Shown: positions 4,681 to 30,484 of the stretch, in pieces | Layout: each line of letters opens with the position of its first letter | How positions within the stretch are numbered: the stretch's first letter is position 1 | Origin: Schaalia odontolytica | GTDB lineage: Bacteria > Actinomycetota > Actinomycetes > Actinomycetales > Actinomycetaceae | DNA: 32,000 bases | Reading direction: 5' to 3' | Assembly (NCBI RefSeq): GCF_005696695.1 | Contig: NZ_CP040006.1 | Span: 420,001 to 452,000, forward strand | The notes under the pieces: model-generated | What the model was told of the DNA's origin: nothing | What the model saw: only the letters and a program-made list of their open reading frames with translations | Database searches by the model: none | Translations under genes and position numbers: made by a program

Positions 4681-4719
4681 CCGGCCTCGTTCCTAGGAGA
4701 GGACCAGTGCGAGTGCAGC
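4681..4719. repeat. Right copy of the 39-nt direct repeat (genuine menA 3' end plus 12 nt downstream)
   Basis: ccggcctcgttcctaggagaggaccagtgcgagtgcagc; see the left copy at 1006-1044. Confidence 0.7.
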
Positions 4720-5586: not shown

Positions 5587-5629
5587 GCCCACCAGTGTAG
5601 TTGGAGCGGGCGCGGGTCCGGGCAGCGGG

Positions 5630-6952: not shown

Positions 6953-7158
6953 GATGAGCCTCCCAAAGTCGACGGCGAACGCATATACAACCAGGATAAA
7001 GGCTTGCGTTCTCGCAGGTGGTGAAGGGAGTCGCGGCAATAATCACGTTTGTCGGTTGAAACGGCGAGATTGCGCCTATTTCCCTGTGGCAGATAACGCA
7101 GCTGAAAATTCAACGGAATTTTCGCGCGGGCATGCATGAGGTTATACGATAGAAAACG

Positions 7159-8601: not shown

Positions 8602-8620
8602 TTAGTGCTGAGCATCAGGG

Positions 8621-8648
8621 CGGGCCGGAACCGAAGGGTTCCGGCCCG
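8621..8648 (+). terminator. Intrinsic terminator of the L,D-transpeptidase gene
   Basis: Perfect 12-bp stem cgggccggaacc / ggttccggcccg with loop gaag, followed by ctttgtcgtgttt. Confidence 0.75.
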
Positions 8649-8655
8649 CTTTGTC

Positions 8656-8682
8656 GTGTTTGTGTTTGTGTTTGTGTTTGTG
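8656..8682. repeat. Hexanucleotide microsatellite (GTGTTT)x4 + GTG
   Basis: Read directly: gtgtttgtgtttgtgtttgtgtttgtg. Confidence 0.9.
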
Positions 8683-8900
8683 GCCCCGCTGGTGTTCCGG
8701 GCGTGGTCTGATCCTGCTGTGGGGCCGGGCTGCTTGGTGCGCCAGTGGGCGGCGGTCCGCCCGCTCGCCGTCCGCGCCGCGAGCTTCGCTCGGCGCGTCG
8801 TCTCGAAGCCCGGCCAGGCCCCGCCACCGCCCACGGGCGCCGTAGCCAGGCCGCGCCGTCGCCCATGGGCGCCGCAGCCCACACAGCCGCCTACGCTCAC

Positions 8901-9010
8901 CAATTTTGCACGTAATTCCCCTGCGACTGTTTCAAATCTTTAATGCGCCTCGTTGGAATTGCAACGTTTTCAGCGTTTATTGAAACTTCTTTCAATCGAA
9001 TTACGTGCAA
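8901..9010. repeat. Hairpin module 1 (MITE-like or structured-RNA-like)
   Basis: ttgcacgtaattc (8906-8918) is perfectly complementary to gaattacgtgcaa (8998-9010), with a 79-nt spacer. The left arm caattttgcacgtaattcccct matches the module 2 left arm at 19/22 positions. Confidence 0.6.
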
Positions 9011-9133
9011 CTTTGCGGGGGTGCTGCCTCGGTGGGCCCACACCAACGCATGCAGGAGCGATCTTTCTTTCGCGGTCCACCACGCCTCATTGGTGCGCCT
9101 TTTTGGGCCGTATCTGGTGTGTTTGTGCCTCGC

Positions 9134-9491
9134 CATGAAACCGACAGCACCTTTGCTGGCGCTTCCTTGCGGTGGCATGAAACCGCCATCACCATTGCGA
9201 GCGATAAAGAGTCCTTTTCGAGCTATTTTGTGCGAGCAAAGGTTATGGCGGTTTCAACGGGGTGTGCAGTGCGGCGTGCAAAGGTGTTGGCGGTTTCAAA
9301 TTTGCCTCGTCATCGTGCCCTGTGCGCGAAAACGTTCGCCCTGCTCGGCCTGGTGTGGGTGTGAGCGTGAAAAAGTTCGTCCAGCGTGGTCGAAATGACC
9401 CAAAATCGGCGTTTTGTTGCGTGCTGGGCGAATTTTTTCGTGGAAATGCTGTGGGATGGGCTGCGCTGGGAGAACTTTTTCGCGGAAGAGC
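9134..9491. repeat. Array of phased repeat pairs with dyad symmetry
   Basis: catgaaaccg(a/c)ca at 9134 and 9176. tggcggtttca at 9246 and 9288, the inverse of the first pair. gaaaa(c/a)gttcg at 9328 and 9369. gctggg.gaa.tttttcg.ggaa at 9423 and 9465, which contains the inverse of gaaaaagttc. Each pair is spaced 41-42 nt. Confidence 0.7.
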
Positions 9492-9565
9492 CACTGCATG
9501 CTCTCATTGTGAGCGTGTGTATGTGCGTCCGCAGTCCTTGCGACGGCCGCTCATCAGCCGGGGAC

Positions 9566-9681
9566 CAATTTCGCATGCAATTCCCCTCAAGGTATTTCAA
9601 GCTATGAACTCAAACCGTTGAGATTCTGCCGTTTTAGTGCCGTCGTGCATGTGGGCTCTGTGGGAATTGCATGCGAAATTG
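9566..9681. repeat. Hairpin module 2 (MITE-like or structured-RNA-like)
   Basis: Perfect 20-nt inverted repeat caatttcgcatgcaattccc (9566-9585) / gggaattgcatgcgaaattg (9662-9681) with a 76-nt spacer. The spacer is partly homologous to the module 1 spacer (cgttgga.att..c.cgtttt.ag.g). Confidence 0.7.
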
Positions 9682-9840
9682 TGGAAGAGGTGGCCTGGAC
9701 TGGTTGTGTGGACCGGGTGTTTTGAGGGGTGGTTGTTAGTGGTGTTGTGCCCATAGGTGCGCGTACCGGTTGGGAAGAACCAGTCCAGTGCGGTGGCTGG
9801 GCCGACCGGCAGGCCCGAAGCGGCGCCGCGACGGAACGTG

Positions 9841-10977
9841 CTACGCGGCCCGGGATGCGATAAAGCCCTGCAAGGCGATGACGCCGGCGCCGCGCGACCA
9901 GGCCTCGTTGGAGCCATCGGAGAGGGTGACGCGAATCGATGAGGCGCGCGGGTCGCGCACCTCTGCGATGCCGGCCCGCAGAGCCTCGCCGCTCAGCGAT
10001 GCGAGCGCGACACCCTCACCGCCGACGATCACCAGTTCCGGAGCCGTGAGAGACGCGACCAGGCCGATGAGCCTGCCGAGGGCGCGCCCCGAGGCCGCCA
10101 AAATCGCCGTCACCGCAGGGTGTTTGTCGGAGGCGAGAGCGATGACGTCGCTCCACTCGAGCGGACGTCCGAGCGCGGCCGACGCGTCGCGGCAGATCGC
10201 GGGCGTCGTCAGCATGGCCTCCGCGCAGCCTCGGTGCCCCTGGGAGCAGATGGGGCCGAGTGGATCGAGTGGCCAGTGGCCGACGAGGCCGATGCCCGAG
10301 TCCTCGTTCTCCAGGCGTGCCCCGTTGGCGACACATCCGTATCCCACGCCCACGCCGACCGTGATAACCGCGAAGTTGGAATGTCCGGTGCCCGACCCGA
10401 ACCAGTGCTGGATCTGCGTGTAGGCGGACAGGTCGTTGGCGACGAAGGTAGGCAGGTGGGTGGCCTCGGAGACGAGGGAGGCGAGTGGAACGTTGTTCCA
10501 CTTGAGGAAGGGGGCCGACTCGACGGCGCCGTCAGCGTTCACGATGCCGCCGACGGCAATGCCGATCGCGTCGATGCGGTAGGCCGAGCGGGCGAGGTGC
10601 GCCAGGTCCGCGATTGCGCGGACAACGCGGATGGGGGTGAGGGATTCGAGGGGGATGCGGTAGGAGTCGCGGGGAGTCGCCTTCAAGTCGATGACGGTGG
10701 CGTCGAGGGCACTGTCCGTCAGCTTGATGCCGAGGAAGTAGTGCGAGGAGGGGACGACGTCGAGGGGGATCGTGGGGCGGCCGGAGGTTCGCTGGGTGGC
10801 CTCGGGGACCTCGGCGAGGAGACCGGAGGAGATGAGCTCCGTCGAGATGCGCGTGAGCGTCGCGGGGGCCAGGCCGAGGCGTCGCGCCAGCTCAGCACGG
10901 CCGAGTGGGCCGTGGATGAGGACTTCGAGAGCGACCGCGGAAGCGAGCTCGTCTTTGGGCTGCCAGGTCATGACCAT
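9841..10977 (-). CDS. ROK-family transcriptional regulator
   Basis: N-terminal winged-helix region (GPLGRAELARRLGLAPATLTRISTELISSGLL) followed by a ROK sugar-kinase-like fold with the Cys/His cluster GHWPLDPLGPICSQGHRGCAE. Start at Met 10975-10977 or 10969-10971; AAGGA fits the latter better. The longer ORF-track extension crosses the promoter region. Confidence 0.85.
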   Translation of the reverse strand: MVMTWQPKDELASAVALEVLIHGPLGRAELARRLGLAPATLTRISTELISSGLLAEVPEATQRTSGRPTIPLDVVPSSHYFLGIKLTDSALDATVIDLKATPRDSYRIPLESLTPIRVVRAIADLAHLARSAYRIDAIGIAVGGIVNADGAVESAPFLKWNNVPLASLVSEATHLPTFVANDLSAYTQIQHWFGSGTGHSNFAVITVGVGVGYGCVANGARLENEDSGIGLVGHWPLDPLGPICSQGHRGCAEAMLTTPAICRDASAALGRPLEWSDVIALASDKHPAVTAILAASGRALGRLIGLVASLTAPELVIVGGEGVALASLSGEALRAGIAEVRDPRASSIRVTLSDGSNEAWSRGAGVIALQGFIASRAA

Positions 10978-11029
10978 TCCTTTCTGGTGAAAGAAAGAGT
11001 ACATGCAAATTTCAATTTTGCCTAGCTTA

Positions 11030-11062
11030 TTGACATAACTAATTTTGCGTGGTGAAATTAGT
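11030..11062 (+). promoter_or_regulatory. Candidate sigma-70-type promoter of the ABC operon with an overlapping inverted-repeat operator
   Basis: TTGACA (11030-11035), 17-nt spacer, TGAAAT (11053-11058) with an upstream TG (11050-11051). Inverted repeat actaattt (11038-11045) / aaattagt (11055-11062) spans the spacer and the -10. Confidence 0.45.
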
Positions 11063-11097
11063 GGCAAGCGGCCAATGGTGGTCGCGATCACGAGAAA

Positions 11098-12408
11098 GTG
11101 CACAGTGCAATGAAGCAGAAGCGTCTCCTTACCGTCGGTGTCACCCTTTTCGCTGCGGCCTCGATGCTTGCAGCCTGTGGTGGCAACACAGCCGACCAGT
11201 CATCGTCTTCCGGATCCGGCTCCTCGACCGTCGAACTCACCCTGTGGGGCACGTACGGTGCGGGCTCCAACAGCGCCCAGAAGGACGCGTTGGAAAAGGA
11301 AATCATCCCCGCCTTCGAGAAGGCCAACCCCGGAATCACCATCAAGTACGTCGACATGCCCTACGACGGCCTCAAGCAGAAGCTCACGACCGGCGCCGCG
11401 GCCGGGGAGCTGCCCGACCTGATCCGTACCGACCTCGGTTGGAACGCGCAGTTCGCCAAGCTGGGTGTCCTCAAGCAGCTCGACGGCAACATGCCGAATT
11501 ACGAGGCCTTGGCGTCCAAGGTCTACCCGGGCCTGCTCGGCACGACCCTGTACAACGGCCACCACTACGGCCTGCCCCTGGACACGAACACGCGCGTGCT
11601 CATCTCCAACCCCGATGCCCTCGCCAAGCTTGGCGTCGACAAGGCCCCTGAGACTTTCGATGAACTGAAGGACCTCGCCGCTAAGGCGAAGGACGCGGGC
11701 GGTTCGGTCTACGCCTTCGCCGACGGGGACATCTCGCAGTGGAACATCATGCCGTGGATCTGGAGCGCGGGCGGCGACATTTCCGATCCCGACCAGACCA
11801 AGGCCTCGGGCTACCTGGACTCCGATAAGTCCGTGGCCGGCGTCCAGTTCCTCGTCGACCTGTACCAGCAGGGGCAGATCCCCAACGCGATCATCGGCAA
11901 CGAGGGCGCGACCAAGACCCAGGACGGCATGCCGAACGGCGAGTACGCGACGATCCTCGACGGCCCGTGGATGGACCAGATCTGGGCGGGCTCGTATCCG
12001 GACTTCAAGCCCACCTACTCTAAGGTTCCCGCCGGCGAGGGCGGATCGATCTCGGTCGTCGGCGGCGAGTCCATCGTCATCACGGAACAGACCAAGGATC
12101 TCGAGGCCTCGTACAAGTTCCTCGAGTTCACCCAGTCGCGCGAGTTCCAGCTGCCGATGAGTAAGGCCGGCCAGATGACGGTCGTTGCCGAGTACGCGGC
12201 CGAGGAGGCCGAGGCGACACCGGGCACCAAGATCTTCTCCGAGCAGCTCAAGACAGCGAAGTCTCGCCTCTCCATCCCTGATGCTGGGAAGGTCGACGAG
12301 ATCTTCAAGACCGAGCTGACCCCCGCCTTCGAAGGCAAGGTGACGGTTAAGGAGGCCCTGACAAAGGCAGCGCAGCAGATCGACCCGCTCCTGAGCGCCG
12401 CCAAGTAA
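11098..12408 (+). CDS. ABC transporter extracellular sugar-binding lipoprotein
   Basis: Signal peptide plus lipobox MLAACGG and a Ser-rich linker. Family-1 solute-binding protein features throughout. The true start is probably ATG 11110 (MKQKRLL..). Confidence 0.85.
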   Translation: MHSAMKQKRLLTVGVTLFAAASMLAACGGNTADQSSSSGSGSSTVELTLWGTYGAGSNSAQKDALEKEIIPAFEKANPGITIKYVDMPYDGLKQKLTTGAAAGELPDLIRTDLGWNAQFAKLGVLKQLDGNMPNYEALASKVYPGLLGTTLYNGHHYGLPLDTNTRVLISNPDALAKLGVDKAPETFDELKDLAAKAKDAGGSVYAFADGDISQWNIMPWIWSAGGDISDPDQTKASGYLDSDKSVAGVQFLVDLYQQGQIPNAIIGNEGATKTQDGMPNGEYATILDGPWMDQIWAGSYPDFKPTYSKVPAGEGGSISVVGGESIVITEQTKDLEASYKFLEFTQSREFQLPMSKAGQMTVVAEYAAEEAEATPGTKIFSEQLKTAKSRLSIPDAGKVDEIFKTELTPAFEGKVTVKEALTKAAQQIDPLLSAAK

Positions 12409-12475
12409 CCCGACGTCGCTCCACTCACCGGGCCCGGCCCCCACGCGCGGGGCTGGGCCCGGGAAAGGACAACTC

Positions 12476-13411
12476 ATGAGCACCCCCACCGCGCACGAGG
12501 CCGTGGCACCTCGGGCGCGTCGGCGTTCCTCCCGGAGGAACCCGGTGGCCCCCTACCTCTTCTTGGCCCCGGGCATGATCCTGTTCGCCCTGTGCATCCT
12601 GTACCCCATGGTGCGGTCGGGGCAGATGAGCTTTTACGACTGGAACATCGTGAAGGGCTCGAACTCGGACTTCGTTGGCCTGGACAATTACGTCAAGGCA
12701 TTCCATGATCCGTCCTTTTGGACGGGGCTGGGAAACTCCGGGATCTATATGGCTTTGACGGTGCCCCCGCAGATCATCCTCGGCCTCGCCGTCGCGATGC
12801 TGCTGCGCTCGAAGGCGCCGCTCCAGCCGCTGTTTCGGGTGCTCTACTACCTGCCCGTAGTCACGTCCTGGGTGGTCGTATCCCTGCTCTTCAAGTACCT
12901 GTTCGCTGACCAGGGGCTCATCAACTACATGTTGGGCAGTGCCCACCTCGGCGCGGGGGACACCTCGTGGCTGTCGAACCGTTGGACCGCCATGATCGCG
13001 ATCTGCGCGCTGGGCGTGTGGAAGGGCATCGGCTGGTCGATGATGATCTTCCTTGCCGCCCTCCAGGGGGTGCCGAAGGAGCTGGAGGAGGCCGCCCTCG
13101 TCGATGGGGCGAACTGGTGGCAGCGCTTCAAAGCCGTGACCGTTCCGGCGATCTGGCCGGCCACCGTCTTCGTCATCGTCATGCTGGTGATCGGTGGCCT
13201 CAACGTCTTCACGTCGGTGCTGCTCATGACGAAGGGCGGGCCCAACGGCCAGACCGAGGTGCTGATGACCTACATGTACCGCCTCGCGTTCTCCGACCTC
13301 AACTTCGGGTATGGCTCGGCGATCGCCGTCGTCCTGACGATCCTCGTGTTCATCATTTCGATTGTTCAGCTCAAAGTACTGAACCGCGACGACGAAAGGG
13401 CGGGAGCATGA
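12476..13411 (+). CDS. Carbohydrate ABC transporter permease (MalF/UgpA-like)
   Basis: Six TM segments. EAA-type loop LQGVPKELEEAALVDGANWWQRFKAVTVP. SD gaaagga lies upstream. Confidence 0.88.
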   Translation: MSTPTAHEAVAPRARRRSSRRNPVAPYLFLAPGMILFALCILYPMVRSGQMSFYDWNIVKGSNSDFVGLDNYVKAFHDPSFWTGLGNSGIYMALTVPPQIILGLAVAMLLRSKAPLQPLFRVLYYLPVVTSWVVVSLLFKYLFADQGLINYMLGSAHLGAGDTSWLSNRWTAMIAICALGVWKGIGWSMMIFLAALQGVPKELEEAALVDGANWWQRFKAVTVPAIWPATVFVIVMLVIGGLNVFTSVLLMTKGGPNGQTEVLMTYMYRLAFSDLNFGYGSAIAVVLTILVFIISIVQLKVLNRDDERAGA

Positions 13412-14253
13412 GCACGTCACGCAAGACGATTCGCGCCGCGGGAACGTCGCTGCGCTTCGTCGTCCTGACGGTGGGGGCGATCGTTATGATCCTGCCCTTC
13501 GCCTACATGGTGTCAACGTCCTTCAAGCCGCAGGCTTACGTCCTGGAGACGCCCCCGAAGTTCATCCCCGACCCGGGCACGGTCGACAACTTCGTGCAAG
13601 CGTGGACGACGCAGGATTTTTCCCGCTACGCCTTGAACTCAGCGTTTGTGTCCGTGACCTCGACGGTGCTGGCCGTGTGGCTCTCCTCGATGATGGCCTA
13701 CGCGTTCGCGCGCTTCGACTTCCCGGGCAAGGAGTGGCTCTTCCGCGCCCTCCTCCTCGGCCTCATGATCCCCTCGATGATGCTGATCATCCCGCAGTTC
13801 GTGCTCACCAAGCAGCTGCACCTCATCGACAACCTGTGGGCCCTCGTGCTGTTCTACGTCTCGGGAAACCTGGCGCTCAACACCTTCCTGCTGCGCAGTT
13901 TCTTCGAGGGGATCCCGTGTGAGCTCGACGAGGCCATGGAGGTCGACGGCGCGAACGTGTGGACCCGCTACTGGCGCCTCGCGATGCCGCTGGCCCGGCC
14001 CGCGCTGGCGACGACCGTCATCTTCACCTTCCTGGCGACCTGGGATGAGTTTGCCTGGGCCCTCACGGTCATTTCGACGGAAACGAAACGCACCCTCCCG
14101 ATCGCCATTCAGCTGTTCCACGGGCAAAACTCCACGCAGTGGGGGCTCGTGTTTGCCGCGTCCCTCATCGCGATCCTCCCCGTTATCGTTGTGTACCTGA
14201 TCTTCCAGCGTCACTTCGTCGCGGGCCTGACCGCAGGAGCCGTGAAAGGATGA
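13408..14253 (+). CDS. Carbohydrate ABC transporter permease (MalG/UgpE-like)
   Basis: Start ATG 13408-13410 overlaps the upstream stop (ATGA). EAA loop FEGIPCELDEAMEVDGANVWTRYWRLAMP. The ORF-track frame 12967..14253 is trimmed to this start. Confidence 0.88.
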   Translation: MSTSRKTIRAAGTSLRFVVLTVGAIVMILPFAYMVSTSFKPQAYVLETPPKFIPDPGTVDNFVQAWTTQDFSRYALNSAFVSVTSTVLAVWLSSMMAYAFARFDFPGKEWLFRALLLGLMIPSMMLIIPQFVLTKQLHLIDNLWALVLFYVSGNLALNTFLLRSFFEGIPCELDEAMEVDGANVWTRYWRLAMPLARPALATTVIFTFLATWDEFAWALTVISTETKRTLPIAIQLFHGQNSTQWGLVFAASLIAILPVIVVYLIFQRHFVAGLTAGAVKG

Positions 14254-15821
14254 CTCCCTTGCTCCTCCCCACACAATCCGTCTACCTGCCCGGCCAGGCG
14301 GTCCTCGTCGAAGCCTCCCACCCGGGCGACCTCGTCGTCACCCACCTGGGCGAGACCGTGCGCGAGGTCCCGTGCGAGCGCCCCGGCCTCGTCGAACTGG
14401 GAGGACTGAGCGTCGGCGGGTACGGTGTCGCCCAGCCGTCGACGGGCGCGTCGAGCGCCGTGCAGGTGTGTGCCTCGGCGTCGGATCGGCTGCGCTACGG
14501 TTTCGTTGCCTCCTTCCGCCCGGGAAAGGACGCCGAGGCCGTGGCCCGTTTCGCGCGTCGCCTGCACCTGACCGGCATTCAGTTCTACGACTGGGCGTAT
14601 CGGCACGCTGACCTGCTGGGCGGGGGAGAGGAGTACCTCGACGCCCTTGATCAGCCGATTTCCCTGGCGACCGTGCGCGCCCTCATCGAGGCGCTGCGCG
14701 CGGTGGGCACGCGGTCGATTGGCTACGCGGCCGTGTACGGCGTCGGCAATGACGAGTGGGAACAGTGGGAGGATGCGGCCCTGCTGGATGCGGTGGGGGA
14801 GCCGTACTCGCTCGCTGACTTCCTGCGCATCGTCGATCCCGCCCATCCGCGCTGGCTTGAGCACTTCGCCGCCGACGTTGCGGCTGCCGCGCGCGAGGTC
14901 GGCTTCGATGGCTTCCACCTCGACCAGTACGGCTACCCGAAGATGGCTGTCCGCCCCGACGGCGAGATCGTCGACGTGGCCTCATCCTTCGACACCCTCA
15001 TCCGAGGGGTGCGTGAGGCGGTGCCCAGCGCGACGCTCGTGTTCAACAACGTCAACGATTTCCCGACCTGGTCCTCGCCGGCAGCCCCTCAGGACGCGGT
15101 CTATATCGAGCCCTGGGAGCCCGTCACCACGTACGAGGCCCTGGCTCGGGTGGTAACGAGGGCGCGGCTCGTCGCGGGCGGGAAGCCCGTCGTCCTGGCG
15201 GCCTATCAGTCCATCTACGACAAGGTTGCCCGGGACGTGGCCGACGCATCGACGCGCCTGACGATGGCGACGCTCTTCTCACACGGTGCCACGCAGCTCC
15301 TCGCCGGAGAAGACGGCCGACTCCTCGTCGATCCGTACTACGTGCGCAACATGCCCGCCGAGGACGAGACCCTCGACATGCTCGCTAGCTGGTACGACTT
15401 CCTCGTCGCGAACGACGAGATCCTCGTGGACCCCGGGATTGTTGACGTGACGGCCTCGTACGTGGGCGCATACAACGCGGATATCGATGTGTCCTTCGAT
15501 GCGGCGCCCGTGTGCTGGGAGGCGTCCCCGGGCTGCGTGTGGCGGCGCATCACCCGCGCAGGCGACGCCCTGGTTGTCCACCTCATCAACCTCGTAGGCC
15601 AGTCCGACACGGTATGGGACGGCCCCCACCGCCCGGTGATCGCGCTGCGAGGCGGTACGCTGCGTCTGAAACCCCTGTTCGGGCGCGTGCCGCGGGTGTG
15701 TGCGGCGGATCCCGACTCGGGTTCGACTCTGATCCCCCTGGACGTGCGCATCGTCGACGGCCAGGCCGTTGTTTCCCTCCCCGACCTCAACGTATGGCAG
15801 GTGCTCCATGTTCTTCTGTAA
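14250..15821 (+). CDS. Glycoside hydrolase family 66-like protein (dextranase / cycloisomalto-oligosaccharide-active family), no signal peptide
   Basis: GIQFYDWAYRHADLL and GFDGFHLDQYGYPK resemble the conserved GH66 blocks as I recall them. ATGA-coupled to the permease gene (start 14250-14252). Confidence 0.6.
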   Translation: MTPLLLPTQSVYLPGQAVLVEASHPGDLVVTHLGETVREVPCERPGLVELGGLSVGGYGVAQPSTGASSAVQVCASASDRLRYGFVASFRPGKDAEAVARFARRLHLTGIQFYDWAYRHADLLGGGEEYLDALDQPISLATVRALIEALRAVGTRSIGYAAVYGVGNDEWEQWEDAALLDAVGEPYSLADFLRIVDPAHPRWLEHFAADVAAAAREVGFDGFHLDQYGYPKMAVRPDGEIVDVASSFDTLIRGVREAVPSATLVFNNVNDFPTWSSPAAPQDAVYIEPWEPVTTYEALARVVTRARLVAGGKPVVLAAYQSIYDKVARDVADASTRLTMATLFSHGATQLLAGEDGRLLVDPYYVRNMPAEDETLDMLASWYDFLVANDEILVDPGIVDVTASYVGAYNADIDVSFDAAPVCWEASPGCVWRRITRAGDALVVHLINLVGQSDTVWDGPHRPVIALRGGTLRLKPLFGRVPRVCAADPDSGSTLIPLDVRIVDGQAVVSLPDLNVWQVLHVLL

Positions 15822-17541
15822 CGATGCGCTGAACCCCGCAGGCAACGGCCTGGGCCCCGACGAGTGGTGGAAGGGCGCGGTCGTCTACCAGATCTACCCG
15901 CGTTCTTTCAAAGACTCCAACGGCGACGGCTTCGGCGATCTCGAGGGCATCCGCTCCAAGCTCGACTACCTGAAGTCCCTGGGCGTGGATGTTCTGTGGC
16001 TCTCGCCGATCTATGCCTCTCCGCAGGCGGACAACGGCTACGACATCGCCGACTACTACGACATCGACCCGATGTTCGGCACGCTGTCGGACTTCGACCG
16101 CCTGCTGGAGGGTGTCCACGAGCGGGGTATGCGCCTCGTTATGGACCTGGTCGTCAACCACTCCTCGGATGAGAACCCGTGGTTCGTTGAGTCGCGCTCC
16201 TCGCGGGAGAACCCGAAGCGCGACTGGTACATCTGGCGAGACCCCCGCCCCGGGTTCGTGGGCGGCGAGGCCGGGGCGGAGCCCACCAATTGGGGGTCCT
16301 TCTTCTCCGGCTCGGCCTGGGCCTGGGACGAGGCCACGGGACAGTACTACCTGCACCTGTTCCACAGGAAGCAGCCCGACCTGAACTGGGAGAACCCGCA
16401 GGTTCGCGCGGCCGTCTACGAGATGATGAACTGGTGGCTCGACCGCGGTGTCGACGGCTTCCGCATGGATGTCATCAACCTGATCTCGAAGGAACCGGGC
16501 CTGCCCGACGGCGTCGTCTACCCCGGGCGCGCGTGGGGCGAGGGCTTCCCGCACTTCTCCGAAGGCCCCCACCTGCACGAATACCTCGCCGAGATGCGCC
16601 GCGAGGTCTTCGATGGCCGCGCGGGCACCATGACGGTCGGCGAGTGCCCCGGCGTGCGCCGCGACAACGTCCTGCTGTTCACAGACCCGGCCCGGCGTGA
16701 GCTCGACATGGTCTTCCAATTCGACCACGTTGACCTCGGCCTCGAAGCAGGGAAGTTTCACCCGCGCCCGCTGCGGCCCGGCGAGCTCGCAGACTGCCTG
16801 AGCGCCTGGCAGGAGGCCCAGGGTGAGGTCGGCTGGAACAGCCTCTACCTGGACAATCACGACCAACCGCGGGCCGTTAGCCGCTTCGGCGACGAATCGC
16901 GCCGCTACGAGTCGGCAACGGCCCTGGCCACCGCCCTGCACATGCTGCGTGGCACGCCCTACGTGTACCAGGGCGAGGAACTCGGCATGACCAACAGCGT
17001 CTTCGGGGGCATCGACGACTACCGTGACGTCGAGGCGCTGCGCTACTACCGCGAGGCCGTGGAGTCGGGGGAGAGCCCCGAGTCGGTCCTGAAGGGGCTG
17101 GCCTTCACCGGCCGCGACAACGCGCGTACCCCCGTCCAGTGGGATGCGAGCGAAAATGCGGGCTTTACGGAGGGCACCCCGTGGATCGGCGTCACCCCGA
17201 ACTATCGCGACATCAACGCGGCCTCCCAGGTCGGCGACCCGTCCTCCGTGTACGCGTACTACCGCGCGCTCGCGGACATCCGCCACGGGCTGCCCGTTAT
17301 CGCGGCCGGATCATTTGAGCGCATTGAGACTCCCTCGCCCGCGATCTTCGCCTATAGGCGCACGCTCGGCGAGGCCGTGGCAACCATCCTCGTCAACCTC
17401 TCCTCCCAGCCGGCCTCCCTCGGCGAGGCCGTGCGCGGGGTGAGTGGGGACCTCCTCCTGGCCAACCGCGACCTGCCCGAGGAGGACCGGGGTATCCCGG
17501 AGAGCCTCGGAGAATGGGAGGCGCGCGTCTACCTCGCGTGA
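15808..17541 (+). CDS. GH13 alpha-glucosidase, oligo-1,6-glucosidase type
   Basis: All four GH13 regions are present: DLVVNHSS, GFRMDVINL, MTVGECPG, YLDNHDQPR. The N-terminal VVYQIYPRSFKDSNGDGFGDLEGI is typical of oligo-1,6-glucosidase/trehalose-6-P hydrolase-like enzymes. Confidence 0.88.
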   Translation: MFFCNDALNPAGNGLGPDEWWKGAVVYQIYPRSFKDSNGDGFGDLEGIRSKLDYLKSLGVDVLWLSPIYASPQADNGYDIADYYDIDPMFGTLSDFDRLLEGVHERGMRLVMDLVVNHSSDENPWFVESRSSRENPKRDWYIWRDPRPGFVGGEAGAEPTNWGSFFSGSAWAWDEATGQYYLHLFHRKQPDLNWENPQVRAAVYEMMNWWLDRGVDGFRMDVINLISKEPGLPDGVVYPGRAWGEGFPHFSEGPHLHEYLAEMRREVFDGRAGTMTVGECPGVRRDNVLLFTDPARRELDMVFQFDHVDLGLEAGKFHPRPLRPGELADCLSAWQEAQGEVGWNSLYLDNHDQPRAVSRFGDESRRYESATALATALHMLRGTPYVYQGEELGMTNSVFGGIDDYRDVEALRYYREAVESGESPESVLKGLAFTGRDNARTPVQWDASENAGFTEGTPWIGVTPNYRDINAASQVGDPSSVYAYYRALADIRHGLPVIAAGSFERIETPSPAIFAYRRTLGEAVATILVNLSSQPASLGEAVRGVSGDLLLANRDLPEEDRGIPESLGEWEARVYLA

Positions 17542-17548
17542 GCGACGA

Positions 17549-17577
17549 AGGCCCGGGATCGGCGAGATCCCGGGCCT
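17549..17577. terminator. Bidirectional hairpin between the convergent GH13 gene and menB
   Basis: Perfect 12-bp stem aggcccgggatc / gatcccgggcct with loop ggcga. Confidence 0.7.
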
Positions 17578-17609
17578 GTGGTCACTGAGTGTCGGTGAGG
17601 AAACCAGCC

Positions 17610-18590
17610 TCAGTAGTAGTAGGGGTAATCCTCCCAGCGGGGGGCGCGGTGCTCGAGGAAGGCGTCGCGCCCCTCCTGCGCCTCGGCCGTCATGTAGGCC
17701 ATGCGCGTGGCCTCGCCCGCGAAGACCTGCTGGCCGGCCAGGCCGTCGTCGGCCAGGTTGAAAGCGAACTTGAGCATGCGGATGGCCTGCGGGGACTTCG
17801 TCGCGATGGTCGCGGCCCACTCCAGGGCGGTCTCCTCGAGTTCGGCGTGGGGGACGGCGCGGTTGATGACGCCCCAGCGTTCGGCAGTTTCGGCATCGTA
17901 GCGCTCGGCGAGGAAGAAAATCTCGCGCGCCCGCTTATCCCCGGCCTGGCGGGCCAGGAGAGCCGATCCGTAGCCGGCGTCGAAGGAGCCGACGTTCGCG
18001 TCCGTCTGCATGAAGGCCGCGTGCTCGATGGAAGCGACCGACAGGTCCGCGACCACGTTGAGGGAGTGACCGCCGCCGGCAGCCCATCCGGGGACGGCCG
18101 CGATGACGACCTTCGGCATCGTGCGGATGAGGCGCTGGACCTCAAGGATGTGTAGGCGTCCGGCGCGCGCGGGGTCGATCTGCTCGCGGCGCTGGGCGGT
18201 GGCCGCCTCGGGGTCCGCGCCCTCGACCTCGTAACGGTAGCCGTCGCGGCCTCGCACCCTCTGGTCGCCGCCGGAGCAGAAGGAGTATCCGCCGTCTCGC
18301 GCCGAGGGGCCGTTGCCCGTCAGGATGACGGCCGCGACCGAGGACGTCTGGCGCGCATGGTCGAGCGCGCGGTACAGCTCGTCGACGGTGCCGGGGCGGA
18401 AGGCGTTGCGGATGTCGGGGCGATCAAAGGCGATGCGCACGACCGGCATGTCGGCGCCCTCGGGACGGCCGTCGGCCTCGGGGCCGCGCGAGATACCGCG
18501 GTGGTAGGTGATGTCGGCGAAGTCGAATCCCTCGACCTCGCGCCAGCGGGTCGGGTCGAAGGTGTCGGACACGAAGGGGAGAGCGCTCAT
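17610..18590 (-). CDS. menB: 1,4-dihydroxy-2-naphthoyl-CoA synthase
   Basis: Crotonase fold with MenB blocks: RIAFDRPDIRNAFRP, FCSGGDQRVRG, GWAAGGGHSL, DANVGSFDAGYGSA, and the C-terminal EGRDAFLEHRAPRW. Start at Met 18588-18590; the upstream extension is non-homologous. Confidence 0.92.
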   Translation of the reverse strand: MSALPFVSDTFDPTRWREVEGFDFADITYHRGISRGPEADGRPEGADMPVVRIAFDRPDIRNAFRPGTVDELYRALDHARQTSSVAAVILTGNGPSARDGGYSFCSGGDQRVRGRDGYRYEVEGADPEAATAQRREQIDPARAGRLHILEVQRLIRTMPKVVIAAVPGWAAGGGHSLNVVADLSVASIEHAAFMQTDANVGSFDAGYGSALLARQAGDKRAREIFFLAERYDAETAERWGVINRAVPHAELEETALEWAATIATKSPQAIRMLKFAFNLADDGLAGQQVFAGEATRMAYMTAEAQEGRDAFLEHRAPRWEDYPYYY

Positions 18591-25562: not shown

Positions 25563-25577
25563 TTTTTCGATAACGAC

Positions 25578-25610
25578 GAGGCCGGGGTCCCTTGTGGGGG
25601 TCCCGGCCTC
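25578..25610. terminator. Bidirectional hairpin between ubiE and the convergent S8 peptidase gene
   Basis: gaggccggggtcccttgtgggggtcccggcctc: outer 9-bp stem gaggccggg / cccggcctc plus inner pairs. It matches the hairpin at 30707-30739 at 29/33 positions. Confidence 0.7.
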
Positions 25611-25632: not shown

Positions 25633-26823
25633 CTACTTCGCGTGGTAGCGCGGGCTCGTACCAAGGTGTGTCGGATACGGGTTCGTGGTTGCTCCGAGGA
25701 CGGATTCGTCCAGGCCTCGGTAGGTGTATGAGTTGTCGAAGACGATCTCCGCCGGCGGGACGATGCCGTCGACGTACTGCGCGATCTCCTCTGGGGTCGG
25801 GCTGGACCCGCCTCCCTTGTCCGCGAGGGGGTTGACATCGGGGTACTGACTGGGATCAGTGTTCATCATTGTTGCGGGGCTCGCTACGCCGTAGCCGGTG
25901 TACTGATTCCAGCCGCCGTCCGGGTTGACGGTCGTGTGTATCAGCAGTTGCAGCAGCTGATTCGACGTCGCATCGGGCCACTTCTGGCGAGCCATCGCGA
26001 GGAATCCTGCGACGATGGGGGTGGAAATGGAAGTCCCAACAGTCTGTGTAATCTGTGCAGTCCCGTAGTCATACGCCTTGATAGGGCCTCCAACGGCCGC
26101 CGTAGTGACGGATGACCCCCATGATGAGTAGTCCGCTCGTGCACCGTTGATATCAACTGCGGAAACACCAACTACTCCAGACCAAAATGACAGGCTTCCC
26201 TCATCATTTGTGTTAGCTGTATTACCGATGCCGGCAACGACGATCGTCCCCGATGCAGCAGCACGAGCTAAAGCCCATTTCAGAGATGCTGCTCGGTCTT
26301 GGGACGAGATAGAAATGCTGACAATGCTTGCACCGTCATTAATCGCATGATTGATCAGTGAAGCGTGCGTGTAAACACTTGTATCTTGACACGATGGATC
26401 TGGCACCGAGCTTCCGCTAACCGTCTGATAACTGTACAGAGTAGCTTGAGGAACAACCCCGTAGTCACGTGCGACGAGAATTGAAGCGACCTCAGTCCCG
26501 TGACGCCGACTATCGTCGTCAGGTTTGATCTGGCAAGGGCTCTTATCAAGGACCGTGGCACCAGCGAGTTCTGGTCGCGATGTGTCAACTGGCCCATCAA
26601 TCATCGCAATTGTGACACCTTGACCCGTGTAGCCTTTAGCTCTCGCTTGGTCGAGGTGGTAGTACGCAAAGTAGGGCTGATCGGCCGCGGTAATGGTGTC
26701 TGCGGCACGTGCCGGAGCAACGGGAACAGCAACGAGTCCCAGGGCAAAAGCGGACGCAGAGGCAATAGCGAGTGAGACGCGTGAGACCTTGTGCTTGGGG
26801 GTCACCATTGGCGGGGATCCCAT
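25633..26823 (-). CDS. Secreted S8 (subtilisin-family) serine peptidase
   Basis: Signal peptide VSLAIASASAFALGLVAVPVAPARA. Catalytic triad blocks VTIAMIDGPVD (Asp), HGTEVASIL (His), GTSISTPIVAG (Ser). The start at 26823 has GAGGA with a 6-nt spacer and overlaps the last codons of the upstream gene. No C-terminal TM anchor. Confidence 0.85.
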   Translation of the reverse strand: MGSPPMVTPKHKVSRVSLAIASASAFALGLVAVPVAPARAADTITAADQPYFAYYHLDQARAKGYTGQGVTIAMIDGPVDTSRPELAGATVLDKSPCQIKPDDDSRRHGTEVASILVARDYGVVPQATLYSYQTVSGSSVPDPSCQDTSVYTHASLINHAINDGASIVSISISSQDRAASLKWALARAAASGTIVVAGIGNTANTNDEGSLSFWSGVVGVSAVDINGARADYSSWGSSVTTAAVGGPIKAYDYGTAQITQTVGTSISTPIVAGFLAMARQKWPDATSNQLLQLLIHTTVNPDGGWNQYTGYGVASPATMMNTDPSQYPDVNPLADKGGGSSPTPEEIAQYVDGIVPPAEIVFDNSYTYRGLDESVLGATTNPYPTHLGTSPRYHAK

Positions 26824-28319
26824 CCGTCGTCCTCACGTTTCGCGGGTGCCAGGTCCTTGTCCGAGCCGTAGGTCTGAGACATGGGATTCACGTAGCCTTC
26901 AGGCAGCGCATCGGGATCATCATCCAGATACCTGTAGGCCTGGTACTTGCGGCGTTTTGCTTTCTTATCCTCCTTCGAGCCGCCCGCACCGGCTCCCATA
27001 CCGCTACCCATGAAAGCTCCCCTGCCGGCACCAGAACCGCCACTCTGAACAGCGGAAGCGCGTGCTGCTCCAGGAGAAGCAGTTGTTCCGCTCACGCCAT
27101 TTCCAGCTGCGCTTCCTGCTCCTGCCTGTGAAGGGGCGGAATAAGTTCCGAGTCCTTTCCCGCTGTATGTTCCAGCAGTCAGAGCAGAAGCTCCAGAACC
27201 CCCGAGAGACCCCGTCCCCATACGCGCAGCTCCGCGCAAGCCAAGGGCACCTGCTCCGAGCGCTCCAATTCCCGCGAGGCGTCCGGCAGAACCACTATCA
27301 GCAGCGGGCCCTCCATTGATTCGCCACAGTGGGTGATCGATGTCGGTGGGATTAGCAGGAACATGACCTCCCCACACGACTCCGTTTCGGTGGTGATTTG
27401 CATCAACCCTCGTATGCAGGAGATCCATGCCCATCAGATCCTGCGCGTTTGTAATGGGGCGATCGTAGGAACCATCGACATCGGGCGGCAGGTACCGCTT
27501 GGATACTTGCTGTGATGCCAGCGCACGGCGTCGAGCAAACTCGTCAGTTTCCGGATCTGCATACCCATCCGGATAGAGTGACTTATCGGATCGCAGGGCG
27601 GCACGCCCATAGTCATCCGCAGCGCTACGTCCATAGATTCCCGAATCATATGACGAATACTGCACGTACCCACGATTGAGATTTTCTTGTGTTTGCTCAG
27701 GAACTGGAAGATCAATGTTCTGATATCCAGCTCCAACCTTCACGCCTGTTTGCGTCAGCGTATTGACACCGGCGCTGAGCTCATTCAAACCGCCATTCAA
27801 GCGCTCAAGAATCTCGGTTGCAGCCGTCTCACGCATGGCGTTCGCTTGCGCTTCCACAGCATCAACATAGGCCGATCCCGCTGACAGAACGGTGTTTGCA
27901 ACCACTCCGGTCACCGCCCCGGTCACAACACCAATAGCGGGTGTATAGGGCAGCGCAACCTTCGCAGCATCGCGCATTGCAGCCGTCTTCGAGTCGATGA
28001 GTGTCGGCGACAGACGACGCGCGTCTGCGGCGGCCTGCGCAATAGCCTGACGGGCAGCGACATAACGCGCAATCCCGCCCATGTAGTACGAACGCTTCGC
28101 TTCCAGACGTGCAACAGTCTGATCTGCCCAGGCCTTCAGCGCCTCTCCAGTCTTCCCTGTAAATCCCTGGTGTTCCTGGAAATGGCGAACCCGCTCGATT
28201 GCCTGATCAAAGCCATCAATGACACGCTTATGATCACTATCCCAAGACTGCAATTCTGCGTTGAAGTCCGCTTGCGCAGCAAAAGTCATGAGCCGGTCAT
28301 ACATCGGTGAAGAAACCAT
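26802..28319 (-). CDS. 505-aa leaderless protein: helical hairpin N-terminus, hydrophobic segment, Gly/Ser/Ala-rich tract, charged/aromatic tail; function unknown (candidate non-Sec secretion substrate)
   Basis: AAGGA with a 6-nt spacer before the ATG. The N-terminal two-helix region is centred on HQGFTGKTGEALKAW (h-x-G turn as in WXG100/LXG proteins). Other segments: AIGVVTGAVTGVVANTVLSAG, a long GSA-rich tract, and the end ..REDDGWDPRQW. Confidence 0.75.
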   Translation of the reverse strand: MVSSPMYDRLMTFAAQADFNAELQSWDSDHKRVIDGFDQAIERVRHFQEHQGFTGKTGEALKAWADQTVARLEAKRSYYMGGIARYVAARQAIAQAAADARRLSPTLIDSKTAAMRDAAKVALPYTPAIGVVTGAVTGVVANTVLSAGSAYVDAVEAQANAMRETAATEILERLNGGLNELSAGVNTLTQTGVKVGAGYQNIDLPVPEQTQENLNRGYVQYSSYDSGIYGRSAADDYGRAALRSDKSLYPDGYADPETDEFARRRALASQQVSKRYLPPDVDGSYDRPITNAQDLMGMDLLHTRVDANHHRNGVVWGGHVPANPTDIDHPLWRINGGPAADSGSAGRLAGIGALGAGALGLRGAARMGTGSLGGSGASALTAGTYSGKGLGTYSAPSQAGAGSAAGNGVSGTTASPGAARASAVQSGGSGAGRGAFMGSGMGAGAGGSKEDKKAKRRKYQAYRYLDDDPDALPEGYVNPMSQTYGSDKDLAPAKREDDGWDPRQW

Positions 28320-28336
28320 GTGTCGTCCTTAAAATC

Positions 28337-28786
28337 TCAGAACTCGGGCATTGCGCCGGCAGCCGTAGGAGCATCATCTGGCTGCGCACTTGGGGCTGTA
28401 GAAGAAGTAGCAGTTGATCCAGCGGTTGAAGCGGCGGCGGCTGCGACTGAGGGGTCTGAGTTAAGTGCACGATTGATTGCCTCAAGCACCGCTGCATTGG
28501 CTTCCTCGCTACTAACGGCCTCCCGAACAGCATCCGTGAGGTTCGTCTGGAATGTATCGAAGATTTTGCGCTCGTCCACAAGCATCTCATCAACAGACGA
28601 GAAGAATCGCACTGCGCTGTTACGAAAATCCTGCGCGCCTTGCTCATTAGTCCATCGGGTTACAGTTTGGGCACCATTGAGCGAGCTCGCAGCGTCATTG
28701 GATTTGTTGAGAGCCGTCCCGCCCTCATCCATATCGCCGTTTGTCTGAGCGTGTTTTTCCTTATCGAAGCCATAATCGGCACTCAT
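28337..28786 (-). CDS. 149-aa small acidic helical protein with Ala/Ser/Thr-rich tail; function unknown (candidate partner/chaperone of the 505-aa protein)
   Basis: AGGAGA with a 6-nt spacer before the ATG. Only a 17-nt gap to the next gene. No signal peptide and no canonical W-x-G (it has RWTNEQG). Confidence 0.7.
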   Translation of the reverse strand: MSADYGFDKEKHAQTNGDMDEGGTALNKSNDAASSLNGAQTVTRWTNEQGAQDFRNSAVRFFSSVDEMLVDERKIFDTFQTNLTDAVREAVSSEEANAAVLEAINRALNSDPSVAAAAASTAGSTATSSTAPSAQPDDAPTAAGAMPEF

Positions 28787-28845: not shown

Positions 28846-28875
28846 AGTGTAGGGCCAGTGCCGACTAGCTCACAA
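28846..28875 (-). promoter_or_regulatory. Weak candidate promoter for the 149-aa/505-aa/S8 operon
   Basis: On the minus strand: TTGTGA (28870-28875), 18-nt spacer, TACACT (28846-28851). It is overlapped by a 7-bp hairpin ctggccc/gggccag. Confidence 0.3.
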
Positions 28876-29023
28876 CCAGTCGAGGTAGCAAGCACCTAGA
28901 GCAATCGAGCAGCTTTGCCCGGCCTCTCGCGTTGGGTACGGAAGACGCAACCGCGTCGACTGGCGGGGTAGGGGTGGCGCGCACCCACGTGCGCGTGATG
29001 CGCGCCCCGCCCCGGCCTCGTCG

Positions 29024-30484
29024 TTAGTTGCTTGGTGCGCGGCCCCGGGTGAGCTTCCCCAGTTCGAGGTAGCCGGGCAGCGGCTTGTTCATGGCCTCGT
29101 TCGCGAAGGCGACGGGCGCGCCGTTCGGCAGCGGGTTGACGACGCGGATCGCGGCGGTCAGCTTCTGCGCGGAGTTGTTCGCGCGGTACTCCGCGGGCAG
29201 CGGCAGGTGCGCGGTCACCCTCCCCGTCTGGCCCGGGAGGATCGAGGGCAGGGGCGACTCGATCGTCTGGCTGGCCACGATCGTGCCCTTCGAATCGACG
29301 AGGACGACCTCGAGCGGCCACGTCGCGTAGAAGGGGGCCGACCCCGTGTTCGTGAACTCCACGGCCACGGCAGCCTTCGCGCCGTGGTAGGTCGCCGACG
29401 TGCGGGTCGCCCGCAGCGTGTACCCCAGGGCGGCGCTCGCGGCCTTGGCGCGCGTCAGCTCGGCTCCGGTGTAGCCGGTCGAGAACGCGTGCTGGTTGAT
29501 GAGCCACGTGGCGTGAGCCTTCTGGATCGACTCGAGGGCCTTGTAATCGCGTCCTTGCTCCCTGCTCGGGCAACGCAGCGGCTGGGAGAATGCGCATTCC
29601 TGGAAGGAGGGGTAGAGCTCGCCGCCGATGGGGGAGTGCTGCCAGGCGTCCCCCTCGCCCTGGTCCTTGAGCTTGGGGATGAAGTGCCAGTCGGTCCCCT
29701 CCAGGGTTGCGTAGCCGAGAGAGTCGTCGAAGTAGCCCATGCCGTGTGCCTTCGTGGCAGCGGTGGGGTAGCGGTTCTGGACGAAGGTGTCGTCAAAGGC
29801 CTCGTCCCAGGCCTCGACGAGGCGGGCGCGGAACTCGTCCGATGGCATCCAGTTGATGGCCTTCGGGTTTTGGTTGTTGACGTAGCCGCTGTACGGGTAG
29901 GTGTGCTCCTCGCCCCAGAATCCGTACAGGCCCGCGGTGATGAAGCCAATGCGTGGATCCCCGTCGTACCTCTCGCCCAGGGCTGCGACGAAGTGCAGGA
30001 GCATCTCCTGGACCTTCGGGTCGTTGTAGTTGGGGGAGAAGGAGATCTTGTTGTTGTCGTAGAAGTCGTAGGTGCGGCTCGTGTCCGTGCCTGCGTCGAT
30101 CAGGTATTGGGGCATCCCGGTCTTTTTGCCGGGGGTGTCCAGGGTGAAACGAATGACGGCCTGGTGACCGCGAGAGGCGATCGCGTCCAGGAGGGCGTCG
30201 ACCTTCGTGAAGTCGTAGGTGTCGCGTCCGGTGACGACGTCGTTCACGGGGAAGGGGGCCCACTCGAGCGTGTAGGGCAGAGCGTTTGCGACCGTGCCGG
30301 GTGCGCCTCCGTCCTTGGGTGCCCACGGCATGAAGCCCTTCATCGGGTTCGTGACCGGGGCTGGCGCTTCCTTGAGCGTCGTCCACTGGGCGGTGGCGGC
30401 CGACGAGGCCGTGGCCGGGAGCGTTGCGCCCGCCAATCCTATGGTCGCCGCGAGAGCGATGGCGATGCGAGAAAATGTTCTCAT
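29024..30484 (-). CDS. Secreted glycoside-hydrolase-like protein (DUF4874/DUF4832-like by memory)
   Basis: Signal peptide ending ATASSAATA. The NPMKGFMPWAP block resembles the NPxRGF start of DUF4874-type TIM-barrel proteins. GFWGEEH and a C-terminal beta-sandwich-like region are also present. Confidence 0.5.
   Translation of the reverse strand: MRTFSRIAIALAATIGLAGATLPATASSAATAQWTTLKEAPAPVTNPMKGFMPWAPKDGGAPGTVANALPYTLEWAPFPVNDVVTGRDTYDFTKVDALLDAIASRGHQAVIRFTLDTPGKKTGMPQYLIDAGTDTSRTYDFYDNNKISFSPNYNDPKVQEMLLHFVAALGERYDGDPRIGFITAGLYGFWGEEHTYPYSGYVNNQNPKAINWMPSDEFRARLVEAWDEAFDDTFVQNRYPTAATKAHGMGYFDDSLGYATLEGTDWHFIPKLKDQGEGDAWQHSPIGGELYPSFQECAFSQPLRCPSREQGRDYKALESIQKAHATWLINQHAFSTGYTGAELTRAKAASAALGYTLRATRTSATYHGAKAAVAVEFTNTGSAPFYATWPLEVVLVDSKGTIVASQTIESPLPSILPGQTGRVTAHLPLPAEYRANNSAQKLTAAIRVVNPLPNGAPVAFANEAMNKPLPGYLELGKLTRGRAPSN

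Follow-up and report, generated by a model that had tools for sequence, protein, structure and literature searches.

An overlapping gene for a secreted subtilase accompanies a probable orphan AesA/AesB-type effector pair in Schaalia odontolytica

What is the role of a compact cassette whose first two genes encode leaderless proteins and whose third encodes a secreted protease of the S8 (subtilase) family? Such a cassette lies in Schaalia odontolytica (assembly GCF_005696695.1, contig NZ_CP040006.1, positions 420,001-452,000; this 32-kb stretch is the window, and all coordinates below are window positions). A preliminary description of the locus read it as encoding a small helical partner together with a large type VII substrate, leaderless and with an N-terminal hairpin, and a secreted subtilase. 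This reading is now supported by homology to the proteins that occupy the positions of AesA and AesB in a related Esx cluster, together with the sequence hallmarks of AesB. As judged from sequence, the cassette is probably an orphan, paralogous to the aesA-aesB-S8 module that belongs to the Esx (type VII) system of Schaalia. The same description recognised neither protein family and thought that the module might be undescribed; for the AesB-like family this no longer holds, as a preprint of 2026-09-09 (PMC13622651) covers it. With the candidate substrate pair, a described family gains a member, and it is the obligatory, coupled and anchor-less subtilase that constitutes the undescribed element.

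All three genes, and the features within them, lie on the minus strand. The first, found by open reading frame (ORF) calling, encodes the AesA-like small helical partner of 149 aa (28337..28786). The second, found by ORF calling and supported by aligned homologues, encodes the AesB-like Esx effector candidate of 505 aa (26802..28319; FBF35_01895; identical in protein sequence to WP_187348964.1), and the third, recognized by its PF00082 match, encodes the secreted S8 subtilase of 396 aa (25633..26823; QCT34873.1 / WP_082632845.1), which carries the database label 'alkaline protease / S8 family serine peptidase'. The GenBank locus tags at the cassette are FBF35_01895 and FBF35_01900, and a literature search with the FBF35 locus tag gave no relevant match. 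We regard the three genes as real because the 505-aa protein has more than 2,100 homologues, the S8 protein has more than 3,300, and the trio recurs in 51 genome loci. The shared strand, the 17-nt and overlapping junctions and the lowered GC (26/60 at 27661-27720) were all found where the preliminary description had placed them, and both hydropathy and PF00082 agree with its account of two leaderless proteins followed by an S8 protein with a signal peptide.

The junctions, read directly from the sequence, are tight. A 17-nt spacer (28320..28336) separates the first two genes; in it, 8 nt before the start codon (ATG) of the 505-aa gene, lies the ribosome-binding site AAGGA. The second and third genes overlap by 22 nt (26802..26823), and GAGGA stands upstream of the S8 ATG. 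In this overlap, the bases GAC GAC GGA TGG GAT CCC CGC CAA TGG TGA are also read as ATG GGA TCC CCG CCA ATG GTG; the same bases encode the AesB-like tail ...DGWDPRQW with its stop codon and the S8 N-terminus MGSPPMV. Such an arrangement implies translational coupling of the putative effector and protease genes. An alternative in-frame S8 start at M6 would give an ATGGTGA overlap, and some database entries use it (391 aa); moreover, the conservation of MGSPPMV in S8 may merely mirror constraint on the AesB-like DGWDPRQW, or the reverse. The product of the 505-aa gene is 500 aa long, starting from M6, in GenBank (QCT36425.1) and 505 aa long in RefSeq. We favour the longer version because its N-terminus, MVSSPMY, is invariant in the family alignment and because of the AAGGA site upstream of its start.

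The frame in which this pair can be understood comes from a study of type VII secretion in S. odontolytica F0309 (Wang et al., bioRxiv 2026-09-09, PMC13622651). There, deletion of eccC led to overgrowth of the Saccharibacteria epibiont TM7-008, and the Esx-dependent secretome consisted of EsxA, EsxB, AesA and AesB, all encoded in the Esx cluster (PMC13622651). The species has, in this Esx system, the specialised secretion system that a type VII reading of the cassette calls for. AesA and AesB co-precipitate, need each other for secretion and were modelled as a pair with AlphaFold3 (PMC13622651). In AesB, a helical domain at the N-terminus is followed by ~160 aa of Gly-rich disordered sequence and then by a charged region of 56 residues with a GYVNP motif, and substitutions in GYVNP abolish its anti-epibiont activity (PMC13622651). 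Its variant of the WXG/LXG signal is an FXG motif between helices 1 and 2, and the criterion used for AesB-like proteins is an N-terminal alpha-helical bundle of ~110-180 aa (PMC13622651). The authors also describe three distally encoded AesB homologues, each adjoining a small EsxA/B-like gene, and report that the epibiont induces five of the eight candidate substrates found in addition; the mechanism of AesB is one they could not work out (PMC13622651). The main text of the preprint mentions no subtilisin, mycosin or peptidase, and the word 'protease' occurs in it only for an inhibitor cocktail reagent.

The 505-aa protein probably belongs, by alignment and architecture, to this AesB-like family of Esx effectors. 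It is 39% identical (E=7e-68) to the 571-aa protein that occupies the aesB position in the Esx cluster of Schaalia sp. ORNL0103 (locus L049), a protein with the full AesB architecture and a tail of exactly 56 residues, and in the tail the identity rises to 68%. Residues 1-200 (27720..28319) make up a predicted N-terminal helical secretion domain, in which AlphaFold2 places helices at residues 5-50, 55-102, 110-120 and 136-198 (predicted local distance difference test, pLDDT, 50-72, in this region only). The FXG motif, F53-T54-G55 (28155..28163), is placed by alignment and model where helix 1 turns into helix 2; all 12 aligned homologues keep F53 and G55, and the modelled turn lies at residues 51-54. 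A middle region (residues 201-344, 27288..27719), predicted disordered with pLDDT <50, contains the motif PIT(D/N)xQDLMGxDLLHTRV...GGHxPAxPxDxDHPLW, conserved even in a distant clade. It is followed by a Gly/Ala/Ser-rich low-complexity region (residues 345-448, 26976..27287) with 32% Gly, 23% Ala and zero acidic residues, also predicted disordered and of variable length between homologues, and then by a charged C-terminal tail of 57 residues (449-505, 26805..26975) defined by composition and alignment, with 12 K+R and 13 D+E. In this tail the GYVNP motif (G475-P479, 26883..26897), the basic cluster KKAKRRKY and the terminal DDGWDPRQW are all invariant in the family alignment. As a whole, residues 192-505 are disordered in the AlphaFold2 model (pLDDT <50).

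This family is narrow, with 151 clusters at E<=0.001 among 1.84 billion representative proteins, and one homologue is labelled 'PGRS subfamily gly rich protein' by JGI. The 505-aa protein has no N-terminal hydrophobic segment and no significant match in Pfam or NCBIfam, including LXG (PF04740), and its family alignment has no PDB match in a sequence-profile search. The likeness to AesA/AesB is one of specific features, namely the FXG turn, the Gly-rich intrinsically disordered region, the GYVNP tail of ~56 residues and a small partner with an N-terminal Asp, all in the same species. Unlike AesB of F0309, the window copy lies outside the Esx cluster and its Gly-rich region has 104 aa instead of about 160; the S8 gene that follows AesB-like genes has no place in the preprint's account.

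The small partner fits the same picture. The 149-aa protein shares 30% identity (E=9e-12) with its counterpart of 192 aa at the aesA position of L049. It is acidic (23 D+E vs 10 K+R) and has no N-terminal hydrophobic segment. When 45 sequences are aligned, an Asp near the N-terminus (D4/D8) and a W44-x4-G49 turn stand out as conserved, and the tail is rich in Ala, Ser and Pro and ends PEF. A homologue of the small gene is detectable upstream of the large gene in 31/38 modules, with spacers of 17-36 nt. The protein resembles the WXG100 family, of which we do not consider it a member: its turn is W-x4-G (WTNEQG) and not WXG, it is 149 aa long with a low-complexity tail, and it gives no WXG100 (PF06013) match at E<=1. 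No significant match was found for it in Pfam or NCBIfam, and the hits to Spidroin_N (E=0.0027) and lone7_assoc_B (E=0.064) were dismissed as far below the cutoffs.

Is the window copy part of an Esx cluster? A scan with one genome per species returned the 51 loci mentioned above, all of them in Schaalia, Pauljensenia and Actinomyces-type genomes and several per genome. In 8 loci, including those of S. meyeri DSM 20733 and of a metagenome-assembled genome of S. odontolytica, eccD and an eccC of ~1,360 aa stand directly upstream of the small-large-S8 module, and the remaining ~40 loci are orphan copies at unrelated sites. In every locus examined, the trio stands together. By its gene order, each Schaalia genome is best described as having one module copy downstream of eccD-eccC plus several orphans, and the window copy as one of the orphans: S8 paralogues adjoin eccC and eccD elsewhere, the copy in the window sits among men (menaquinone), sugar-transport and glycosidase genes, and there are no ecc genes within the 32-kb window. 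The L049 cluster has the order eccD, eccC (with three FtsK_SpoIIIE stretches), a gene for a 189-aa lipoprotein, the 192-aa helical protein, the 571-aa protein, five S8 genes, a Ser/Thr kinase gene and a transglutaminase-like gene. Its S8 array (11695-17969 of that locus) has three copies that run in the direction of the large gene and two that run against it. At L047, two complete lipoprotein-small-large-S8 modules stand in tandem.

The third gene gives the cassette its distinctive character. Its product matches Pfam PF00082 with E=3.7e-29 (102.4 bits vs a cutoff of 21.8), and the catalytic set D76, H108, N201 (oxyanion) and S265 is intact. A signal peptide covers approximately residues 1-40, with a hydrophobic segment at 18-36 followed by ARA and then AD. 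There is no I9-type propeptide, because the catalytic domain starts directly after the signal peptide: residue 61 of S8 aligns to residue 17 of mature subtilisin BPN'. C97 and C145 are conserved, and an 85-residue C-terminal extension ends HLGTSPRYHAK. Among 66 S8 copies, 61 keep the D-H-N-S set, 56 keep both cysteines, nearly all end HLGTSPRYHxK, and none has a C-terminal membrane anchor (maximum 19-residue hydropathy in the last 60 residues, 0.74). The catalytic Asp is replaced by Gly in 5/66, all in loci with tandem S8 copies (L032, L039, L044, L049 and L050), and these copies are probable pseudo-proteases. An AlphaFold2 model of S8, built on a 20-sequence alignment of 64-93% identity, was unusable (mean pLDDT 40.4).

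The association of this protease with the pair is strict. In 34/34 scorable ORF-called modules the S8 gene lies downstream of the large gene, and in 33/34 the overlap is exactly 22 nt. Taking all large genes, an S8 gene stands directly downstream of 43/43 of the GYVNP type vs 0/39 of the distant relatives without GYVNP, many of which adjoin eccC; the 43 comprise 40 resolved by ORF calling and 3 by tblastn, one of these being frameshifted and two having been missed by ORF calling. The analysis also covered metagenomes, which were scanned with a 6-sequence alignment. A distant AesB-like clade at L055-L065 (~1000-15000) has, in place of GYVNP, a tail of the form ...GYDVVRVDDDE...DxW and the middle motif DLLxTPINxRMxxDGPVGG, and its genes are convergent with eccC and eccD, with no S8 downstream. 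In the other direction, S8 genes can be amplified, since tandem arrays of up to five accompany a single large gene at L040, L041, L047, L049 and L050.

Mycosins (MycP1-5) are Sec-exported subtilases of mycobacterial ESX systems that lack a classical propeptide and whose C-terminal transmembrane anchor ties MycP to the ESX complex; MycP1 cleaves the ESX substrate EspB. The preliminary description had drawn a parallel to them for the S8 protein, and the comparison stands in part. Like the mycosins, S8 is a subtilisin-fold protease encoded with type VII genes, with a signal peptide and no propeptide, and the combination of a substrate with a disordered C-terminus and a co-encoded subtilase follows the logic of MycP1 and EspB. 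The best NCBIfam match of S8 is indeed TIGR03921 (mycosin), at 145 bits vs a cutoff of 278.75; however, subtilisin BPN', run as a control, reaches 210.9 bits, and the S8 paralogues in Esx clusters reach 113-165. Because BPN' outscores S8 on this profile, we read the mycosin match as generic. The S8 family profile searched against the PDB also gives BPN' 109 bits and MycP1 85 bits. Membership in the mycosins was therefore rejected on the grounds of the subthreshold score, the higher score of BPN' and the missing C-terminal anchor. In contrast to the mycosins, S8 is anchor-less, no closer to MycP1 than to BPN', present in multiple and tandem copies, and apparently coupled in translation to a candidate substrate gene. 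The more distant loci were also considered as possible sites of a canonical membrane-anchored mycosin, and the S8 genes there are of the same anchor-less family.

Other type VII arrangements offer partial parallels. Like the LXG and Lap modules of Firmicute T7SSb systems (for example TelA-LapA3-LapA4, PDB 8GMH), the cassette places a small helical partner upstream of a large putative effector, and orphan modules occur in both; unlike them, it gives no Pfam LXG or DUF3130 match, would carry a disordered payload instead of an enzymatic toxin, and has a protease gene and no immunity gene. The mycobacterial ESX substrates PE/PPE and EspB share with the 505-aa protein a helical-bundle N-terminus and, after it, a long C-terminal part that is of low complexity or disordered, but there is no sequence homology, no YxxxD/E motif and only an insignificant structural match to PPE41. 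Foldseek ranked PPE41 at 25 and 30 (E=0.3) and TelA-LXG at 40 (E=0.41), in a search where long helical bundles are not told apart; with matches of this kind (E=0.3-0.4), structural membership of the 505-aa protein in the PPE or LXG groups was rejected. The structure prediction proposed earlier as a check has thus yielded the helices and the FXG turn of the N-terminus, and no significant Foldseek match.

How could such a module work? Co-transcription, a heterodimer, export by Esx and a disordered tail as payload form a likely sequence of steps. The three genes would be expressed as a single transcript from their own promoter, as suggested by the 17-nt spacer, the 22-nt overlap and an upstream region that moves with the cassette on inversion. 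The 149-aa protein and the N-terminal hairpin of the 505-aa protein would pair in the cytoplasm as a helical bundle showing a bipartite signal, made of the FXG turn of the large protein and the N-terminal Asp of the small one; this step is drawn from homology to AesA/AesB, for which co-immunoprecipitation, mutual secretion dependence and an AlphaFold3 model are available (PMC13622651). The pair would then leave the cell through the one EccC/EccD machine, whose genes lie elsewhere in the genome, with the disordered Gly-rich region and the charged GYVNP tail as putative payload. In AesB, both parts are needed to restrain Saccharibacteria epibionts (PMC13622651). Translational coupling would fix the amount of S8 relative to the large protein; S8 would take a separate route, by Sec, fold without a propeptide and stay soluble or wall-associated. 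Outside the membrane, in the reading that we favour, it may act on the disordered part of the AesB-like protein, in maturation or release of the tail, or beside the AesB-like protein on the epibiont surface. For this last step the grounds are the strict gene linkage and the intact catalytic residues.

The sequence around the genes bears on their expression and mobility. GC in 500-nt windows is 0.52-0.63 across the trio vs 0.68-0.72 in the flanks, and GC at third codon positions (GC3) is 0.51-0.59 in the three cassette genes vs 0.87-0.91 in menF, menG and the DUF4832 gene, and 0.85-0.92 for the menaquinone genes of the flanks. Inside the L049 Esx cluster, GC3 is 0.61 for AesA, 0.76 for AesB and 0.70-0.74 for S8a-c vs 0.90 for EccC. 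Since GC3 is below that of core genes even there, we take the low GC as a property of the module and not as a sign of recent import at this site. The men-linked copy is found from S. odontolytica to S. meyeri. A mobile-element origin was rejected, since tblastn against 72,556 plasmids and 50,697 phages gave no match, and so was a known anti-phage system, as PADLOC returned only a generic 'subtilase' match and weak IetS matches. A candidate promoter for the cassette (28846..28875, minus strand) has a -35 element TTGTGA (28875-28870), an 18-nt spacer and a -10 element TACACT (28851-28846), and several classes of orphan paralogues have a box of the TANNNT type (TACACT, TAGACT, TATGCT) at ~60-70 nt before their small gene. 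A scan for consensus promoters and terminators gave no more than chance expectation, the candidate promoter falling below its threshold.

The cassette, which has menG on one side and the DUF4832 gene on the other, is also framed by inverted repeats. A GC-rich hairpin, GAGGCCGGGGTCCC / GGGGTCCCGGCCTC (25578..25610, inverted repeat I6), lies between the convergent S8 and menG genes, where it probably acts as a terminator in both directions. The arms of a second inverted repeat (I2) are 17 nt long and match perfectly, with the left arm, TAACGACGAGGCCGGGG (25571..25587), abutting the menG stop codon and the right arm, CCCCGGCCTCGTCGTTA (29010..29026), abutting the stop codon of the DUF4832 gene; inner repeats lie at 25578-25587 and 28911-28919. 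In seven other assemblies (L006, L008-L012 and L014) the whole 3.3-kb cassette is flipped relative to menG and the DUF4832 gene, the orientation of the window being shared with L004, L005 and L013. The inversion breakpoints lie in the GAGGCCGGGG/CCCGGCCTC inverted repeats, which double as terminator stems for the flanking genes that converge on them. L009-L012 and L014 have, at the orthologous locus next to the men genes (~11500-12700), a more diverged S8 gene of a 399-aa allele type, which suggests that the S8 gene was swapped between paralogues there.

Several observations weigh against the cassette being an Esx effector module with a processing protease. Orphan AesB-like proteins were not detected in the Esx-dependent secretome of F0309, and deletion of the orphan OBNOAD_01965 had no phenotype on TM7-008 (PMC13622651). 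The link to AesB of F0309 (OBNOAD_00324) runs via position and architecture in other Schaalia genomes. The AlphaFold2 model of the 505-aa protein is weak (mean pLDDT 41.7), and a Foldseek search against the PDB with it gave nothing at E<=0.001, with BAR domains at the top of the list. Cleavage or binding of the AesB-like protein by S8 is proposed from gene linkage. All cases of the association of S8 with GYVNP fall in a single clade, and one ancestral event may account for them. Finally, identities are discordant between strains, with 85-88% to the window's version for the large protein of L009-L012 and L014 and only 67-74% for their S8, which argues against tight pairwise co-evolution.

What, then, is the subtilase for? 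We would tentatively propose that the S8 proteins are dedicated extracellular maturation proteases of AesB-like effectors, with the substrate leaving by Esx and the protease by Sec; a cut in the disordered part, perhaps close to the KKxxRRKY cluster that is invariant, would free or activate the GYVNP tail of ~56 residues, which would act on the epibiont. The main rival, which we consider unlikely, is that they are independent Sec-secreted enzymes of defence or attack, directed at surface proteins of the epibiont or of competitors and co-regulated with AesB-like proteins that they neither process nor need. Arrays of up to five S8 genes beside one large gene speak for such enzymes, as do the signal peptide that S8 has of its own and the differing S8 alleles at the orthologous locus, which are what an arms race would be expected to produce. 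However, mere co-regulation does not require that, in 33/34 modules, the S8 start lie within the final 22 nt of the gene for the AesB-like protein, nor does it account for the absence of S8 beside the non-GYVNP relatives, which are equally Esx-linked.

It seems very improbable that S8 is a true descendant of the mycosins, a component of the Esx machine that stabilises the membrane complex or gates secretion. S8 paralogues do lie within a few kb of eccC and eccD in the Esx cluster, they share with mycosins a signal peptide and the lack of a propeptide, and the profile match to MycP1 passes the catalytic core and reaches profile position 348; yet the scores on TIGR03921 and against the PDB both favour BPN', no anchor is present in the 66 copies, and 2-5 copies per cluster plus one per orphan module are unexpected for a machine component. 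Least likely of all, in our judgement, is that the orphan cassette is a largely silent reservoir that donates sequence by recombination to the expressed aesB and S8 genes of the Esx cluster. The several paralogous copies per genome, the inversion between strains across short inverted repeats, the mosaic of identities between large gene and S8, and the negative findings on orphans in F0309 would all suit a reservoir. Against it stand three intact ORFs with catalytic residues kept, a men-linked copy conserved from one species to another, the ribosome-binding sites and promoter-like box, and the epibiont induction of five of the eight extra candidate substrates (PMC13622651).

A second locus in the window, cassette 1 (1060-4509, minus strand), consists of a gene for a 550-aa protein (2857-4509) and three DUF4853 paralogues after it, a layout that resembles a toxin with an immunity array. 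The 550-aa protein is helical at its N-terminus and ends in an Abhydrolase_8 domain (PF06259, E=1e-24); there is no small partner gene upstream, only 183 nt to menA. The preliminary description had suggested a possible link between the two cassettes on grounds that included a shared type of N-terminal domain, and here it found no support, as two comparisons detected no homology between the N-terminal domains of the 505-aa and 550-aa proteins (BLASTP E=0.35, hhalign probability 1.1%). The link survives in another form, since genes of the cassette 1 type adjoin trio or Esx loci elsewhere: homologues are convergent with and adjoin the trio in L029, L030 and L037, and they lie 2-4 kb from eccC-linked distant AesB-like genes in nine metagenome loci, including L056-L059, L063 and L065-L067. 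It is plausible, from this neighbourhood, that cassette 1 shares the Esx association of the trio.

The rest of the 32-kb window is of a housekeeping kind and holds, in its menaquinone part, genes for UbiA/MenA-type, AMP-ligase, enoyl-CoA hydratase, MR_MLE and TPP enzymes, isochorismate synthase and MenG, and, in its other part, genes for a ROK regulator, a sugar ABC transporter, a GH66 enzyme, an alpha-amylase, an L,D-transpeptidase and an HtrA-type protease. Another stretch of lower GC (0.56-0.64), at ~8600-9800, has the L,D-transpeptidase gene on one side and the ROK regulator gene on the other; in it we found no tRNA, no ORF with coding-type GC3 and no match to an Rfam family that reaches the gathering score.

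Esx secretion in oral Actinomycetaceae has newly been tied to defence against parasitic Saccharibacteria. Our analysis adds that AesB-type (GYVNP) genes travel as fixed three-gene units and not as pairs, the third member being a secreted, propeptide-less subtilase that looks catalytically intact. The gene for it appears to be translationally coupled to its neighbour, is amplified up to five-fold in the Esx cluster and is restricted to the clade with the GYVNP tail. The analysis also flags a subtilase family whose current annotation is only 'alkaline protease' or 'S8 family peptidase'. This linkage gives a testable lead on how the disordered AesB-like effectors work. If the S8 proteins do mature these effectors, the outcome would be a two-pathway system of effector maturation, and it would supply the mechanism of AesB.

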